Assembly (NCBI GenBank): GCA_039630545.1 | Contig: JBCNUU010000010.1 | Span: 1 to 38,157 of the forward strand | Direction: 5' to 3' | From: Endomicrobiia bacterium | Lineage (GTDB): Bacteria > Elusimicrobiota > Endomicrobiia > DTEH01 | Length of the DNA stretch: 38,157 bases | Part shown: positions 15,001 to 21,000 of the stretch, piece after piece | Numbering within the stretch: the first letter of the stretch is position 1 | Layout: each line of letters starts with the position of its first letter | Position numbers: made by a program

Positions 15001-18000
15001 TGCTACAAGTTTTTTAAATTTCTTCATATGCTTAAGGAACAGGTAAATATATAACAAAAGTAGCGCCTTTACCTTTCCCTTCAGACATCACTGTAATTTT
15101 ACCTTTATGATGCAATATAATATCTCTAGTAATAGAAAGACCCATCCCAGCAAATTTGTCTTTACTTTTTGTAGTAAAAAATGGCTCAAAAATCAATTTA
15201 AAATTTTCTTTTTCTATTCCACAACCAGTATCTTGAACTTCTACAGCAACATATTTTTTTGAACTATTTGCTTCTTCATCTAATATTGTAGTATATGTTC
15301 TTATTTTAATAAAGTTATTTTTATTTGTTGTATTTTCTGAAATTGCCTGAATTGAATTATTTATTATATTAAGAAACGCCTGTTGTATATGAGGAACTGA
15401 AACTTTTAGTTTTGGTAATTTTTCATCTAACAAAGTTTGGATCTCTATATTATTTGCTTTAAGTTCACTATCAGCAATAAATAAAGTACTTTTTATTACA
15501 TCATTTATATCTACCTCACTATACTCATATTCTTTCTGTCTAGAAAATTTCAAAAGTGTAGCCACGCTTTCTTTGCATCTTAAAGCAGCTCTTTCTATTT
15601 TTTTAACATGTTCTATTAAAGGAGAATCTGCCGGAAGTTTCTCTAACAAAATCTGTGCTTGACCTAACACTCCAACTAAAGGATTATTAAGTTCATGTGC
15701 AATACCTCCTGCCAATTGCCCAATGTTAGATAATCTATCCATCTGTAAAATTTGTGTCTGTAATGTTTTTAAGCTATTTACCATATGATTAAAAGCTGAA
15801 ATCACTTCTGAAAATTCATCTTTAGTTGAAAAGTCTATAGTTGTATAATTACCTTTAGACAAACTATCAGCAAATCTCACTATGATCTTCAAGGGATTTA
15901 TCAGAGAGTTATATACTTTTACTCCGTAGTTGAAACTAATAAATAGAGAAAAACCTATTACAATAAATGAAATAACCCAGCTTAGAACATATAAAAATTG
16001 AATATTACTTTGTAAAGAATTTATCTGTTTTATGCACATACTTTTTTCTTTATTTATATTATTTGTAAATATTTCATATGCCGAAAGGAAATCATTCATT
16101 GCTATGTTTATTTTCTTAATTCTGTCTTTTTCATTAAATATCTTCTCAGCAATGTTTAACAAAACACTATATTCTTTTTCTACATTACTATAAGGCGTTT
16201 TTTGAATATAAAGATTTATAATTCCTTTAATATGAGTGGTTAATAATACAAAGTTTTCTTTTTCTTTTTCTTCTTGAAGCAATATATAATAATCAAAACG
16301 TAATTTTTGAAATCCAACGGTTTGGATAATACTTTCTAACAATCCCAACCTATCTCTCATTTCTACATATCTTATAAAATTTTTCTGTTGAAGATATAAA
16401 CTCAACACTAACCATAATATTAAAGTAAAAATTAATACTACAAAAACAAAAAATATCATTCTTAATTTCTGTCTTATAGTCATATTTTTAAAAGTAAGGA
16501 GGGATTAATCTAAAAAAATCTATGTTCTTGAAATTATAATCTCTATACGTCTATTTTTAGCTCTATTTTCTTCAGTATCATTGTTCACAACAGGTTTATG
16601 TTCTCCATAACCTGCTATAGCAAATCTTTCAGGTGGTAAGTTCTTAACTTCTGTAAAATACCTCATCACAGAAATTGCTCTTGCAATAGAAAGTTCCATA
16701 TTATTTGCATATTCTTTTGTTCTAATAGGAACATTATCCGTATGACCTTCTATTATTATTAAATTTGTTGAAGGAAGTGTAGATATCAACTCAGACAAAT
16801 CGTCTAAAACTTTTTTAGCGTTCTCATCTAAGTCTGCCCTACCTGAAGCAAACAATACTGCTCGCTCTGTAAACATAATCCGAATTTTCTGTGCAGTAAT
16901 GTTTACCTGTGCTGCTTCAGACAGCCCTCTTTTTTCCATGTATTCTTTAAGTTTCTGTGCAAATTCTGTCTCTTTTTCTCTTTTTTCAAGCTCTTTTTTT
17001 AACTTTAAATCTAAGTTAGCAACCTGAGCCTGTATTTTATTCATTAAACGTTCATAATTAATATCATTAGAAAAGTAAGTGTAAGCATATAAGACAAAGA
17101 AAAATATCATCAAAAATGTCATAAGATTCCCATAAGGTGTAACCCAACTTTCGGCATCTATCTTGTAATTATCTTCATTTCCTAAAATTTCTAATTTTGA
17201 TTTTATTGTTCTTTTCAGAGTAGTTTTATTATTCATAAAACTATTTTTTAATAATTTTTATCTCTATACGACGATTTTTTGCCTTATTTTCTTCTGTATC
17301 GTTTGGTGCCACCGGCCTATATTCACCATACCCAACACATGAGATTCTTTTTTCTTCTATGCCTTCTTTTATTAAATAATCCCTCACAGAAAAAGCCCTA
17401 GCAGCAGAAAGCTCCCAGTTAGACTTATACTTACCTCCGTAAATAGGGGTATTATCTGTGTGCCCTTCTACTACTATTTCACTAGTAATGGATTTTAAAC
17501 TTTCTGCCACTTCTTTAAGAACAACTAAAGCGGTATCTTTAAGTTCTGCTTTACCTATATCAAATAATACTGGAGAAGGTAAATTTATTACAATTTCTTC
17601 TTCTTTTACCTCTACAGTTGCGATATCTTTAAGCTTTTTTGACAGCTCATCTGTTTGTTCTTCCACTATCTGTTGCTGAGTAACTTCGATTTTCTTACCT
17701 AAATTTGCTAATGCTCGCATAAGCTGTTCTCTTTTTGAAGCACTTAGCCTTGTAAACGCAAATAATATCAAAAAAATAACGCCAGGTTAGTAGACATATC
17801 TGAATAAACTGTTCGCCAGATATTCAAACCTTGTTTTATTTCCTCACTTTCAGTAATTTCTTCTTGGATTTCTTGTTCAATTTCTTCTAATCTGTTTTTT
17901 TCTTCCATAATTATTTTTTTCTCTGCCTCATTTTATGTGCTAAAAATGCCTGGAGTCTTCTGCTTACAACAGATGGTAGTTCACCTGCCTGAATTGCTAA

Positions 18001-21000
18001 AATACCTTCTATAGCAACCTCTTTAAGTAGTAACTTTTCCTCAGTATAAGCAGCAAGTTTATTAGCAATAGGCAGAAAAATAAAGTTTGTGCCAAATATT
18101 CCATAAAATGTAGTAATCACTGCAACAGCCATAGAAGAACCTATTGCTTCAGGATTTGTAAGATTTTTAAGTACACCCACTACACCTATCAGAGTACAAA
18201 GCAATCCAAATACTGGAGCATAAGCACCCATACCTCTAAAGACTGCATGAATCTGCTGGTGTCTTCTTCTTATAAATGTTATTTCTTTTATTAAGTTTTC
18301 TCTCACAATTTCTGGTGGAAGTCCATCTAATACCATTTGCAGTCCATCTACTAAAAAATGGTCTTTAATTTTAGGCAAACTATCTTGTAAAGAATCCAAT
18401 CCTCCTCGTTTCGCCTCTTCAGCTAAATCAACCAAAAGCCTTATGTACTTTTCTGCTGTCCATCTTTTTTGAGGAAAAAGTGCTAACATCATAGCTTTAG
18501 GAACTCTTTTAAGAATTCGATAAGGATAAGTAAGAAAAGTTGAAGCTATGGTCCCACCCAATACAAGAATTAAAGAAGGAAGGTTATAAATCATGTTTAC
18601 CAATCCACCAGCCTGAAGAGTATAATATACAGCCCAGATACCCAAACCCAACCCAATTACTGTCATCAGATCCATAATTTTTACTCTCCTTTCTTAAATA
18701 TGTAAAAGAACAAAAATTATTTCTTTTTTTCAATTACTTCTGGTTCTATAGTAAAACTTCTTTGTCTTTCTATCTGTTCTTTTATAAATTTACTTCTATC
18801 TATTGTAATTTCACCAGCATTTAATAAATCACGAATAGTTGCAATAATTTTTTCTGTTCAGTTTTTATAACTTTTTCTCCAACTTCACCTAAAAGGTCCA
18901 TCTGCTCTGCTAACATCGCACGCCCACCTTCTGTCAGACAATCCATAACTTTATTTTTTATTTCATCTGAAGCACCTTTTAAAGCTATTGCCAAAGAAAT
19001 TCCTCTCCTTTGGATTTCACGAATAATTTTTTGAAGTGTTGTTTTATCAAGAAATAAAATATCTTCAAATAAGAATATTTTCTCCCTCAATTTTTCAGCT
19101 AAAGATGGATTTTGAATAGACAAAGTTTGCAAGATATCCTCTTGAACATCTTTGTCTGCTTGATCTAATAAGGATAAAAAGTATTCTTCACCTCCTATAC
19201 AATAGTCAATTCTTGACTTTATATTATTTTCAATTTCCTGGACTTCTTTAGGATCTGGAAGTTTAACAGAAGCAAGTTCTAAAGCTACTTTTGCTTGAGT
19301 TTTTTGATCTAACATCATCATAAATTCTGAAACTAAATCAGGAGGTAAATAATTTAATACAAGTGCTATAGTGGAAGGTGCTTCGTCCTTTATAAGATAC
19401 CATAAATTTTTAAGATTAGACCTATTTATAAAATCAAAAAGTTTCCTCTGTGTTTTCTCTTCTTTTTTTCCACCCACAGTTAGTTCAAATGTACCTCCTC
19501 CAAAACCTCCTTGAGGAGCTGGCAAACCCGGAATCTCAACACCAGGTAATAAGCCAGTCTGAGTTTGTCCTGAAATTTCTGTTTTCTCAGTACTTCTAAG
19601 TCTAGCATCTGCTTCTATTCTTAACTGGACAGCTTTAACTATGGTTTTAAAGAAATGAGTAACAGGACCAAATAAAAATAAAGCAATTACAAAAATTATA
19701 AATGGAATATATAAATGAGGTAACATTTGTTCTAATATCATCTGCCATGTAGGTGTTTTTTGAAACTGAATCCTTGTTACATTAATAGTATCTCCACGCA
19801 TTGTGTTTAAACCTAAAAATGAAGGAAGTTCTGTTTTTATTCTATTTACTATATTTTCTGGTAAACTTACATCTACTGCTACATTGATAATAATTCTATC
19901 TATTACAAGTTGCATAGGTAAATTAGTAGCAGGATTTGTTATCGGAAGATATGAATATGTAACACCAGGTAGATATTCTTCTTCTCTAATATACAACCCA
20001 GGGTATTGCTGCTTACTTAAATCTATGTTGCTTGCAGGTGTCTGTTCTGGAGTTTTTATTTCTACAGTTACTAATACGACAAAATTTTTACTTCCTATTA
20101 TTTTTAAAACTATGTCCTCAACTTTCTGCTGGATTGATTTTTCAAGATTAATTTTTTCTTCAGTTAAAGTTAATGTAAAACTGTGGGATATTATTACCAA
20201 GAGAATTAATGTTAGTGCTATCTTTTTCATGAAAACAAATTATATAAATTCAACTAAAATTTGATTAGCTACAAATTTATATTTTGAGGGGATTATTAAA
20301 TAATTATCCTCTCTTTTCAACTTTCCTTCTTTGATTAACTTTTTTATTATTGTATTATACTTCCTTTGAATACTTTTATTTATTAACAACCCTTTAGTAG
20401 TTCTTAGTGCTAATATTATTTTTTCTTTTAGAGCAACTTCGTCAGGAATGTTTTCTACTTCATATTTAAAGTTCAGGTTTATATACTCCTCTACTTTCGA
20501 TACATTAGTTATGCGTTTTTTATTTAAAAAAGATACTGATGATGTACCTATCCCTATATATTCTTTCCTTCTCCAGTAATTCAGATTATGTAAACATTCA
20601 TATCCACTTTTAGCAAAGTTAGATATCTCATATATATTATAATTATTTTTTGATAAAAAATCAACTATTATTTCATACATCTTCGCTTGCAAATCTTCAT
20701 CAGGAAAATATTTACATTTATAAAAATAACTCCCTTCCTCTATAGTTAAAGCATAACAGGATACATGAGTTGGATTAAACTTTACTGTAAATTCTAAATC
20801 CTGTATTACATCTTTAATTTTTTGGCCAGGAAGTCCAAAAATAAGATCAAAGTTATAGTTACAAAATCCTAATTTTTCAAAAATTTTAACGGCACTTATT
20901 ACATTTTCTATTGTATGTATTCTACCAATGGATTTAAGAATTTTGTCATTAAAACTCTGAACACCTAAACTTAACCTTATATTTTTAGTTAACGAGAAAA

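Follow-up and report, generated by a model that had tools for sequence, protein, structure and literature searches.

Why would a bacterium of hot springs, whose group is almost never flagellated, carry genes for both the rotor and the stator of a flagellar motor? In the 38,157-nt stretch of Endomicrobiia DNA analysed here (the window), four genes form a cassette at 16520-20230 on the minus strand, in the order FliF-FliG fusion, MotA, MotB1 and MotB2. We propose, with moderate confidence, that these genes encode a self-contained rotor and stator of the flagellar type that operate independently of any flagellum.

The fusion gene occupies 18720..20230 (minus strand, as are all features below), as delimited by Pfam, alignment with relatives of 500-513 aa, DNA alignment and tblastn. 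The survey's finding had placed it at 18821-20230, coordinates that hold for the open reading frame as called (g00259, 469 aa) but not for the full gene, which is ended early by a 1-nt deletion near 18847; the intact form has about 505 residues and its relatives about 500-513. Pfam, hydropathy and structural models bear out the proposal that a single polypeptide joins an N-terminal helix, an RBM3-like periplasmic domain, a transmembrane (TM) helix and the FliG middle and C-terminal domains. The N-terminal hydrophobic segment (residues ~4-22; 20162..20230) was located by a Kyte-Doolittle scan and is matched by helix 2-14 of the model made for P0002, a full-length orthologue that is 86% identical; it represents a signal peptide or else a first TM helix. 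It is followed by the periplasmic domain (residues 24-164; 19739..20161; AF2 model, VIA-align and phmmer) and by a TM helix (residues ~173-191; 19658..19714; hydropathy 2.38; helix 165-190 in the P0002 model) that terminates in a conserved LFLFGP motif, with F185, L186, F187, G188 and P189 invariant in 15 sequences. A flexible linker of about 60 residues leads to the FliG middle domain (residues 275-341; 19208..19408; Pfam FliG_M E 7.5e-15; alignment to Thermotoga maritima FliG 1lkv) and the FliG C-terminal, or torque, domain (residues 369-465; 18836..19126; Pfam FliG_C E 3.8e-23). FliG_N is absent from the fusion by Pfam, and phmmer matches the fusion to the T. maritima FliG middle and C-terminal structure 1lkv with E 1.4e-32. 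The Pfam YscJ_FliF_C match at residues 109-156 (E 2.1e-4) falls just short of the 23.8-bit cut-off, at 22.2 bits. Across 92 members of the fusion family, Pfam detects FliG_C in all 92, FliG_M in 91 and YscJ_FliF_C in 64 (best E 4.2e-10). The paralogue claimed on another contig (g00458, on C12) is present as well, as a 632-aa frame with FliG_M, FliG_C and TPR.

We used structure prediction to assess the likeness of the periplasmic domain to the FliF S-ring that the survey had put forward. The fusion's own residues 24-164, modelled by AF2 with 20 relatives (mean pLDDT 70.1), adopt an alpha-beta-beta-alpha-beta fold with an insert of about 50 residues between beta1 and beta2, where FliF has its beta-collar. 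The insert carries an invariant LPG hairpin, and an RGD motif lies ahead of the final strand (L64, P65, G66, R122 and D124 are invariant in 21 sequences), although the insert, like the linker, is modelled at pLDDT <50. When the domain was compared with 48,161 PDB chains by VIA-align, FliF MS-ring RBM3 domains took ranks one to three: 8z5v_A (Z 12.6, rmsd 2.1, 92 aligned, 24% identity), 6scn_A (Z 11.8) and 8z4d_1 (Z 11.5). The likeness thus holds for g00259's own domain. Below FliF came OsmC-like folds (Z 8-9.5, the best unrelated fold at 9.5), PrgK (8.3) and SpoIIIAG (8.1). The other ring-building-motif proteins among the matches listed, PrgK, EscJ and SpoIIIAG, are ring formers too. The phmmer search with the domain reached a FliF chain (9yh6_Oj, E 0.0027). 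Foldseek with the full-length P0002 model (pLDDT 83.1) gave 24 matches at E<=1e-3, and all 24 of those listed are FliG or FliF chains, including 1lkv at E 2.8e-12 and FliF S-ring chains at E 2.2e-4 to 8.7e-4; 1qc7 superposes on the FliG C domain of P0002 with an rmsd of 1.9 and a TM-score of 0.92 by target.

Coordinates, Pfam and alignment to PDB chains confirm that the fusion adjoins a flagellar-type motA and two motB genes. MotA (254 aa; 17911..18675) is a MotA/PomA-type stator A subunit (Pfam MotA_ExbB E 4.4e-22). Its NCBIfam matches to MotP/MotA/PomA range from 1e-54 to 1e-60, under the equivalog cut-offs, and solved MotA/PomA chains align with it from end to end (246-250 residues; E 4e-43). 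It has the complete cytoplasmic torque-generating region of flagellar stators. MotB1 (17241..17908; Pfam OmpA E 8e-24; intact relatives of 216-231 aa) has a TM helix with a conserved Asp (YSDM) and an OmpA domain, and in an alignment of 33 MotB sequences all 16 relatives have this Asp; the 5' piece of the gene in the window has it too. MotB2 (16520..17236) combines a plug (Pfam MotB_plug, 29 bits against a cut-off of 24), a TM helix with Asn (YGNLM) and an OmpA domain (E 8e-22). Asn replaces the proton-binding Asp in 11 of 16 cassettes in the same alignment, and a MotB2 homodimer would therefore be dead.

The survey had named the torque-helix charges as a point on which its reading could fail, and comparison with solved FliG gives a divided answer. 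One acidic residue is retained at the D288/D289 positions in 20 of 21 fusion sequences, but the fusion alignment columns hold no basic residue at the positions aligned with R281 and R297, the R281 equivalent being Gly, Ala or Glu in all 21. On the stator side, the equivalent of MotA E98 is Gln in 16 of 17 cassette MotAs and Glu in an unlinked MotA of this genome (contig C34). The E98/R281 charge pair is thus lost on both sides, a matched loss. The Gly-Gly hinge is invariant in all 21 fusion sequences, an M-F-x-F-like hinge is present in orthologues and gone from some paralogues, and the FliM-binding EHPQ motif is degenerate, reduced to E..P.

Profile searches of this genome returned no match for FlhA, YscJ_FliF (RBM1/2), rod proteins, FliM, FliN or flagellin, in agreement with the claim that it lacks flagellar genes; the companion claim that the whole class lacks FlhA fails for one of 122 class genomes, which has the cassette as well. 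FlhA occurs in 9 of 401 genomes of the phylum. The periplasmic-domain profile matches 164 of these 401 genomes, in 84 of 123 genera and often in 2-5 copies; 159 of the carriers have no FlhA match and five are among the nine FlhA genomes. Of 20 fetched loci, 16 have MotA next to the fusion and 15 have MotA plus two MotB genes, including paralogous cassettes only 26-29% identical. Across Elusimicrobiota without the flagellar export gate, the four genes stay together. Selection on the cassette is strongly purifying: dN/dS is 0.08-0.12 in the fusion, 0.02-0.05 in MotA and 0.05-0.13 in the MotB pair. In a tree of FliG middle and C-terminal columns, one branch (bootstrap/SH-aLRT 100/99) separates 59 fusion rows from 21 canonical FliGs, four of them from flagellated Elusimicrobiota; the fusion probably represents an old lineage separate from canonical FliGs.

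The survey had also tied the motor to PorV-like outer-membrane barrels. Gene order supports this tie in relatives, where a giant CTD protein, a PorV/UPF0164-like barrel-TPR protein, the fusion, MotA and two MotBs follow one another. In loci L044-L050 and L054, the genes directly upstream of the fusion are those for the giant protein and then for the barrel-TPR protein; the giant protein is of the BNR/FN3 kind and ends in a FlgD_ig/CTD-like tail, of T9SS type in these relatives. The tie fails at the present locus: the giant and barrel-TPR genes of this genome are unlinked to the cassette, which is flanked by housekeeping genes and a histidine kinase. Because there is no outer-membrane partner here, the link to an output rests on other genomes. 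The match to the SprA translocon in this genome scores 15 bits (E 0.004).

The same gene set could be read in other ways. A disfavoured and highly improbable reading takes the genes for leftovers, without function, of a flagellum that was lost. It would fit a phylum in which, by the FlhA counts and the available text of bioRxiv 10.1101/2022.07.08.499144, most members lack flagella and a few have complete sets, and it would fit the lesions described below, but it sits poorly with the spread of the family over genera, the four-gene order kept among highly diverged cassettes, the low dN/dS, the separation from the canonical FliGs that flagellated Elusimicrobiota have and the coexistence with FlhA in five genomes. 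We also think it unlikely, though less so, that the fusion forms no rotating ring and instead serves as a membrane scaffold or sensor, fixed or moving laterally, to which MotAB units dock, for signalling with the kinase or for Tol/Ton-like energising of an envelope process. A HAMP-HisKA-HATPase histidine kinase (15032..16483; Pfam) lies directly downstream of the cassette, as it does in all four family loci that reach past MotB2 (L041, L042 and L043 in full, L040 cut by the contig end), and kinases adjoin other paralogous cassettes (L047, L051 and L052). Half of the canonical torque-helix charges are gone, FliM/FliN and FliG_N for building a C-ring are lacking, and most MotB2 proteins are without the Asp. 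Against a scaffold stand the periplasmic domain, nearest to a FliF RBM3 that forms 33-35-mer rings in solved entries (by their titles), the retained hinges and the complete torque-generating region of MotA.

It is quite possible, if still doubtful, that the system is off or decaying in this genome, by recent pseudogenisation or by switching through tract slippage, and that the family functions elsewhere. Of the four genes in the cassette, the assembly has two, the fusion and MotB1, in interrupted form. The deletion near 18847, beside an A-run, puts the last ~42 fusion codons (18720-18845) in another frame and truncates the FliG C domain just past the torque helix; the conserved C-terminus of the relatives is encoded in that next frame, and tblastn finds a second piece of the fusion at 18720-18875. 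MotB1 has its true start at 17908 and a frameshift at a T-run near 17769, which leaves a 5' piece (17771-17908) and an open reading frame at 17241-17771. The unlinked giant gene has an in-frame TAG and the unlinked barrel-TPR gene is frameshifted within an (AT)n stretch, which brings the lesions in system genes to four, in a streamlined 1.6-Mb genome with slippage-prone tracts; a MAG can mix strains, however, so the four need not share one cell. As a rough baseline, we used 303 ORFs of three congeners; 221 of them have orthologues here with >=50% identity, spread over about 171 places, and apart from one unrelated region (C45:42.5-44 kb) only genes of this system appeared split. In the congener G008, an in-frame TAA falls within the torque helix of the fusion. 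Precisely at the fusion and MotB1 sites, contigs assembled from public runs of the same springs carry other alleles: X2 has one extra base that restores the fusion frame, and X1, a Logan contig, has an extra base that restores MotB1 and a fusion that is still frameshifted. The two cassette frameshifts are not fixed in the local population. These alleles were compared in assembled contigs, in which homopolymer lengths may be wrong, and come from three runs of one study that may include the genome's source sample. Any loss would be very recent, since dN/dS between this genome and its nearest relative stands at 0.08 in the fusion and 0.025 in MotA.

The cassette shares with the flagellar motor core the RBM3 fold, FliG middle and C-terminal domains with a Gly-Gly hinge, a full-length MotA/PomA-type A subunit and MotB with plug, TM Asp and OmpA domain. 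It differs in that the fusion is one polypeptide rather than FliF plus FliG, in lacking the E98/R281 pair on both partners, and in having two different MotB genes, the second mostly with Asp changed to Asn; this genome also lacks RBM1/RBM2, FliG_N, FliM/FliN, the export gate, rod, hook and filament. The survey took this to be the first natural FliF-FliG fusion, but one was published earlier for the non-flagellated Chlamydiaceae (Bergeron, bioRxiv 10.1101/023564 = PMC4768692). As described in the available part of that paper, it likewise runs from a signal sequence or TM segment through one or more periplasmic ring-building motifs and a TM helix to a FliG-like part in the cytosol. Its description there sets it apart from the cassette fusion: it has ~330 aa, RBM2 and an unassigned RBM-like domain rather than RBM3, FliG M only without the torque domain, no MotAB partner named in that part, and a presumed role with a type III system. 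Engineered or spontaneous FliF-FliG fusions of Salmonella and Vibrio form rings (excerpts of PMC10941966, PMC11481574 and PMC6079021), and those of Salmonella permit flagellar assembly and rotation (cited in bioRxiv 10.1101/023564); by these excerpts they join full-length FliF to full-length FliG in a complete flagellum, whereas here there is RBM3 only, no FliG_N and no flagellum. GldLM/PorLM of T9SS and gliding, as presented in parts of PMC8986121 and PMC9127263, resembles the cassette in proposed output only, an ion-driven motor with a PorV-like barrel and a SprB-type giant protein; GldL5M2 and MotAB with a FliF-FliG ring are unrelated architectures. Non-flagellated Elusimicrobiota are reported to have 'numerous homologues' of motAB and fliG despite having no structural flagellar proteins, with a role called unclear (bioRxiv 10.1101/2022.07.08.499144, available text). 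Most likely, these are the same genes as the cassette family; that text mentions no FliF-like periplasmic domain, fusion, cassette, or barrel or giant-protein neighbours. Our search found no published description of this fusion-MotAB family.

In the rotor-stator module that we favour, the RBM3-like domain would hold copies of the fusion together as a ring in the inner membrane, with a FliG ring beneath it. Because FliG_N, FliM, FliN and FliF RBM1/2 are absent, ring assembly would differ from that in flagella. Peptidoglycan-anchored units of the MotA5B2 type, powered by ions passing through the MotB1 Asp, would push on the FliG C domains and turn the ring, through a modified interface in which one charge pair, MotA Lys/Arg with FliG Glu, is kept and the other, MotA E98 with FliG R281, is lost. 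Judging from gene order in relatives, the periplasmic face may couple to the TPR domain of a PorV-like barrel that holds the giant surface protein, and in this genome the cassette would have been relocated away from the barrel and giant-protein genes. The motor would then move or deploy a surface adhesin, and the module looks like a flagellar-type motor put to other use.

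The window (28% GC) belongs to contig C2 of a genome, G000, of 1.60 Mb in 82 contigs (95.5% complete), and the names on its close homologues place it in the class Endomicrobia of the Elusimicrobiota; public runs containing the stretch are labelled hot springs metagenome, with no RNA run listed among them. The cassette sits in a co-directional minus-strand string that reads Def, Fmt, DUF116 and a HemN-like radical-SAM gene, then the cassette, a HAMP histidine kinase (15032-16483), an AMIN-amidase and MurI. The cassette itself consists of the fusion gene g00259 (18821-20230 as called), MotA (17911-18675), the first MotB-like gene, MotB1 (17241-17771 as an ORF), and the second, MotB2 (16520-17236), all on the minus strand and, when true gene ends are used, separated by only 2-45 nt. 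On the minus strand, none of the intervals between cassette genes holds a terminator-like site, and promoter-like sites are barely more frequent than in shuffles (78 versus 63.9, s.d. 7.4), both scans being uninformative at this GC content.

The second half of g00259 resembles the middle and C-terminal domains of the flagellar rotor protein FliG. Pfam places FliG_M at residues 275-341 (E 7.5e-15) and FliG_C at residues 369-465 (E 3.8e-23), both above cut-off, and by sequence the Thermotoga maritima FliG-MC structure 1lkv matches an orthologue at E 1.4e-32. The fliG model TIGR00207 scores 113.5 bits against a cut-off of 226.7, and g00259 is therefore no equivalog of ordinary FliG. The FliG_N domain, which binds the FliF C-terminus, is absent: its sole match (residues 287-371, E 0.0012, 19.8 bits against a cut-off of 25) falls on the M/C armadillo repeats, and the region between the transmembrane helix and FliG_M is a disordered linker.

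The first half of the protein was compared with FliF by profile, by model and by fold ranking. YscJ_FliF_C lies just below its Pfam cut-off on residues 109-156 of g00259 (22.2 versus 23.8 bits) and matches 64 of 92 family members at E<=0.01, with a best E of 4.2e-10. Hydropathy gives a hydrophobic N-terminal segment and one strong transmembrane helix at 173-191, a two-segment layout that recurs in most of 60 relatives checked; these are 500-513 aa long, versus 469 aa for g00259 as called. The motif LFLFGP at the cytoplasmic end of the helix (residues 185-189, window 19660-19680) is invariant in 15 close relatives and nearly so in 18 more distant ones. We modelled P0002, an intact orthologue 86% identical to g00259, with 91 relatives (mean pLDDT 83.1). 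Its periplasmic part comprises a helix (23-48), a strand (53-62), an insert of low model quality in which a short hairpin surrounds an invariant Leu-Pro-Gly, and then a strand (112-123), a helix (128-142) and a strand (151-157); a transmembrane helix (165-190), a disordered stretch (216-254) and the FliG M and C helices follow. Against the PDB, Foldseek returned 24 matches at E<=1e-3 for this model, and all 24 listed are FliG or FliF chains. The best FliG chain was 1lkv (E 2.8e-12), and FliF S-ring/RBM3 chains matched at E 2.2e-4 to 8.7e-4 (probability 1.00, about 160 columns, 19-21% identity). By sequence alone, the FliF chain 9yh6_Oj matched residues 31-159 at E 0.0027.

The periplasmic domain of g00259 itself (residues 24-164), folded with 20 relatives from genome loci (pLDDT 70.1), was ranked with VIA-align against 48,161 PDB representatives. 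FliF RBM3 took ranks 1-3 (Z 12.6, 11.8 and 11.5; rmsd 1.8-2.2; 89-94 residues aligned; 24-26% identity), and the next folds were unrelated OsmC-like proteins (Z up to 9.5), PrgK (8.3) and SpoIIIAG (8.1). By structure comparison, g00259 thus has the RBM3 or S-ring domain fold of FliF. RBM1 and RBM2 (YscJ_FliF, PF01514) had no Pfam match at E<=0.01 in the fusion or anywhere else in the genome. The anatomy described in the survey's finding, namely an RBM3-like periplasmic domain, a transmembrane helix and FliG M and C domains in one polypeptide, is therefore independently confirmed on g00259.

The adjoining genes resemble flagellar stators. Residues 1-251 of MotA align with few gaps to the solved MotA/PomA chains 9lu9, 8ucs, 6ysf, 8bri and 6ysl (E 4e-43 to 1e-40), and from this alignment the protein is predicted to span the expanded cytoplasmic torque-generating region and four transmembrane helices. 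The MotP, MotA and PomA NCBIfam models match it at 1e-54 to 1e-60, below their equivalog cut-offs. Pfam finds a MotB plug (29 bits; cut-off 24) together with an OmpA domain (E 8e-22) in MotB2, which has Asn at the position of the MotB Asp. MotB1 has an OmpA domain (Pfam, E 8e-24), and its true 5' end (17771-17908) encodes a transmembrane helix with the conserved Asp in Y-S-D-M; the gene is frameshifted here. The plug, the transmembrane Asp and the OmpA-type peptidoglycan-binding domain of a B subunit are all present, spread over MotB1 and MotB2. A 2025 mBio paper (PMC12505986) lists an expanded torque-generating interface, a plug with linker and an OmpA-type domain as features of flagellar-class stators, and the cassette stator genes show the features listed there. 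Among relatives, the MotB that adjoins MotA has the Asp in 16/16, and the second has Asn in 11/16 and Asp in 5/16. A MotB1/MotB2 heterodimer with a single proton-binding site would be an attractive reading of this pattern.

The genome has four MotA/ExbB-family genes: that of the cassette, a MotA-MotB pair on contig C34, an ExbB-ExbD-ExbD set on C6 and one on C12, the contig that carries the fusion paralogue. The unlinked C34 pair (C34:9001-15200) has the canonical rotor-contact charges (A-R-K-E-G-L-L-A-L-E) and the MotB Asp; its neighbours are an ECF sigma factor, a CBM48 protein and a protein of 2,500 aa that ends in a T9SS-type tail. The pair is possibly the stator of the C12 paralogue, which is itself without one. 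The C6 set (C6:12000-19600) lies beside homologues of PorV-like barrels and T9SS-tailed proteins; here, for a second time, an ion-driven motor with two subunits of the B type neighbours barrel/cargo pairs.

Contacts between MotA and FliG are stated alike in PMC12505986 and PMC7564593: MotA R90 pairs with FliG D288/D289, and MotA E98 with FliG R281. We counted the corresponding FliG columns in 21 sequences and the MotA columns in 17, with T. maritima and C. sporogenes alignments as a guide. Escherichia coli residue numbers were placed on the columns of the T. maritima FliG sequence, an assignment we assume to be correct, and we take K264 and R297 to be further charged torque-helix residues that meet MotA. 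On this assumed numbering, Lys occupies the K264-equivalent in 18/21, and the D288/D289-equivalents read E/Q or Q/E, with one acidic residue kept in 20/21. The R281-equivalent is Gly in 18, Ala in 2 and Glu in 1 of the 21, with an Arg two positions later in 14, and the R297-equivalent is basic in 0/21. The canonical torque-helix charges thus seem to be retained in part: the lysine and one acidic residue hold, and the basic residues at the positions of R281 and R297 do not. The MotA columns were set by the A-R-R-E-G-L-L-x-L-E motif in solved chains, on which R90 and E98 presumably fall. In 16/17 cassette MotAs the R90-equivalent is Lys, followed by Arg or Lys, and the E98-equivalent is likewise Gln in 16/17. 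Within G000, the unlinked C34 MotA retains both canonical charges and the C12 fusion paralogue retains Glu-Glu. The loss of one charge pair on both partners and the retention of the other would fit co-adapted partners.

The EHPQR motif is given as the FliM-binding motif of FliG in PMC6290876. In the window protein EHPQ reads E-A-P-S and the family form is E..P; His is found at its position in 0/21 sequences and Gln in 1/21, a degeneration that agrees with FliM being absent. All 21 sequences keep the Gly-Gly hinge, and the hinge motif ahead of the FliG C domain is retained in orthologues.

Profiles for flagellar proteins (PF00771, PF00460, PF02154, PF01052 and PF00669) matched in four flagellated control genomes. 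In the 95.5% complete G000, FlhA, YscJ_FliF, the rod N-terminal motif, FliM, FliN and flagellin had no match, which bears out the earlier statement that this genome lacks flagellar genes. The accompanying statement that the whole class lacks FlhA needs one exception: 121 of 122 class genomes are without a match, but one has FlhA. This genome, G017, also has the full set of giant protein, barrel-TPR, fusion, MotA, MotB and MotB. The fusion itself occurs in 27 of the 122 class genomes, 26 of 33 outside one small-genome family and 1 of 89 inside it.

At phylum level, a profile of the periplasmic domain matched 164 of 401 genomes and 84 of 123 genera, many carriers having 2-5 copies; among good-quality genomes, the figure is 134 of 293. 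FlhA was found in 9 of the 401, and since five of those nine also carry the periplasmic domain, the two systems coexist and do not replace each other. A library of 1.84 billion representative proteins yielded 103 proteins at E<=1e-30, many aligned from about residue 20 to about 465; the cluster members of 10 representatives carry Elusimicrobiota names only, or are unnamed. Atlas rows without an alignment name Cloacimonadota, Bdellovibrionota, Bacteroidota, Balneolota, Thermodesulfobacteriota and Pseudomonadota, and serve as leads only.

We placed the fusions relative to canonical FliG in an IQ-TREE phylogeny of the FliG-MC columns (80 rows). A single branch, supported at 100/99, parts the 59 fusion rows from 21 canonical FliGs, four of which come from flagellated Elusimicrobiota, and in this tree, whose canonical sample is narrow and mostly proteobacterial, the fusion shows as an old, separate clade. 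Being unrooted, the tree gives no order of which form came first.

The DNA around 20 fusion genes of the class shows how far the cassette is conserved. MotA adjoins the fusion in 16 loci, and MotA with two MotBs does so in 15; one locus meets its contig end inside the first MotB. The other four have no adjacent stator, and one of them ends 150 nt past the gene. The pattern extends to paralogous cassettes only 26-29% identical to the window protein. Comparisons among congeners give dN/dS values of 0.08-0.12 (fusion), 0.02-0.05 (MotA), 0.05-0.09 (MotB1) and 0.08-0.13 (MotB2), figures that are rough because dS exceeds 1.

In orthologous cassettes outside the genus (L044-L050 and L054), two genes precede the fusion. 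One encodes a giant protein of 1,660-2,086 aa with BNR/sortilin propellers, FN3 domains and a C-terminal FlgD_ig/CTD-like tail. The other, which we call barrel-TPR, encodes 504-612 aa with an N-terminal part weakly resembling PorV or UPF0164 and a TPR C-terminus; in L050 (the locus of G017) it reaches 27.1 bits with the PorV Pfam model (cut-off 27), and two other neighbours match UPF0164. In L043, a locus of the sister genus, a 546-aa gene upstream of the fusion matches the G000 barrel-TPR gene. Other paralogous cassettes have FecR and CARDB/CarboxypepD_reg proteins, or kinases, in place of the barrel pair. In G000, the orthologues of the giant and barrel-TPR genes lie at C12:170967-179711, unlinked from the cassette, and a second barrel-TPR gene (524 aa) precedes the C12 paralogue. 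The T9SS tail model Por_Secre_tail has 17 matches at E<=0.01 in this genome, including the C-terminus of the giant protein and that of the ORF preceding the 524-aa barrel; SprA_N reaches only 15.4 bits (E 0.004). The connection to PorV-like barrels drawn in the survey's finding is thus upheld by gene order in L044-L050 and L054, but no such neighbours occur at this locus. Because the orthologues are unlinked in G000, the surface-protein link is one of gene order in relatives and not of this locus.

The cassette is partly interrupted in this genome. The fusion gene lacks one base beside an A-run near 18847, and the frame of MotB1 is shifted in a T-run near 17769. On C12, a frameshift within an (AT)n stretch near 179225 breaks the barrel-TPR gene, and an in-frame TAG near 176139 lies within conserved sequence of the giant gene. 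As a rough baseline, we compared 303 ORFs of at least 150 aa from three congeners with G000. An orthologue with at least 50% identity was found for 221, at about 171 places, and 208 of these were unbroken across 90% or more of their length, on which basis we reject an assembly full of errors as the cause of the frameshifts. The only split genes seen were those of the system itself and one unrelated region, C45:42300-44300. There, short ORF pieces in three frames are matched piecewise by congener ORFs of 251-634 aa and, by eye, resemble carbon-monoxide dehydrogenase/accessory genes.

We also compared tract lengths in Logan contigs of three public runs, from two samples of one study on the same springs. 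One contig (X2) has one more base after 18847, which restores the relatives' frame, ...EQKKIIATIRD...; in another (X1), an extra base after 17769 brings MotB1 back into frame. The fusion frameshift persists in X1 and in the third contig, X3. At the MotB1/MotB2 junction (window 17232), X1 also carries an 8-nt insertion, TCATAAAA on the plus strand, a duplication of the MotB2 start-codon region that by our reading leaves the protein unchanged. A congener, G008 (L042:7983-9509), has an in-frame TAA at the Gln443 codon in the torque helix (...GGRAMLAE*IDLLGD...), after which the conserved frame resumes. These variants may be on/off alleles at slippage-prone tracts in the population; alternatively, the system could be starting to decay in this lineage, and it is possible that some of the tract lengths are assembly errors.

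The observation as such is real and far beyond chance, and a non-flagellar, flagellar-type rotor-stator module is its most likely reading, with the ring, its rotation and its output as predictions. The claim that this is the first natural FliF-FliG fusion fails, since a fusion of different make-up has been published for Chlamydiaceae (Bergeron, 10.1101/023564). Uzun et al. (10.1101/2022.07.08.499144) record many homologues of motAB and fliG among Elusimicrobiota without flagella, with a role that they call unclear, and a 2025 ISME J survey (PMC12199754) suggests that rotor proteins without filaments may have another function. Full-text searches of the main text of papers outside subscription journals turned up no account of an RBM3-FliG-MC fusion paired with MotAB.

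A joint reading of the whole, which we think improbable, would make the cassette an ancient autonomous envelope rotary machine with a fusion ring, a heterodimeric stator axle, adhesin output and tract switches. A ring of FliF(RBM3)-FliG fusions in the inner membrane would be spun by MotA units; their axle would be a MotB1/MotB2 heterodimer, asymmetric in that one subunit has the proton-carrying Asp and the other Asn. The ring would drive the TPR domain of the PorV-like barrel across the periplasm and thereby move the giant adhesin with its T9SS-type tail along the cell surface, serving gliding or surface transport, and slippage-prone tracts would act as on/off switches. The fusion clade would be a deep sister of flagellar FliG and, if so, would therefore show the scope of a rotor-stator pair without export apparatus or filament.

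Flagellar-class stators and FliG are usually viewed as flagellum-specific parts, and the conserved four-gene unit is a concrete object for that question. Rotor-like and stator-like partners occur together in roughly 40% of the Elusimicrobiota genomes sampled, and FlhA is missing from nearly all of these; the partners have a modified charge interface and an unusual MotB pair; the barrel and giant surface protein of relatives are a candidate output. The polymorphic frameshifts offer a testable idea, on/off switching or ongoing loss. Should the unit rotate, it would add to the small number of known classes of ion-driven rotary machines, provide a simple system in which torque generation can be studied apart from some 30 other flagellar proteins and inform models of the origin of the flagellar motor.
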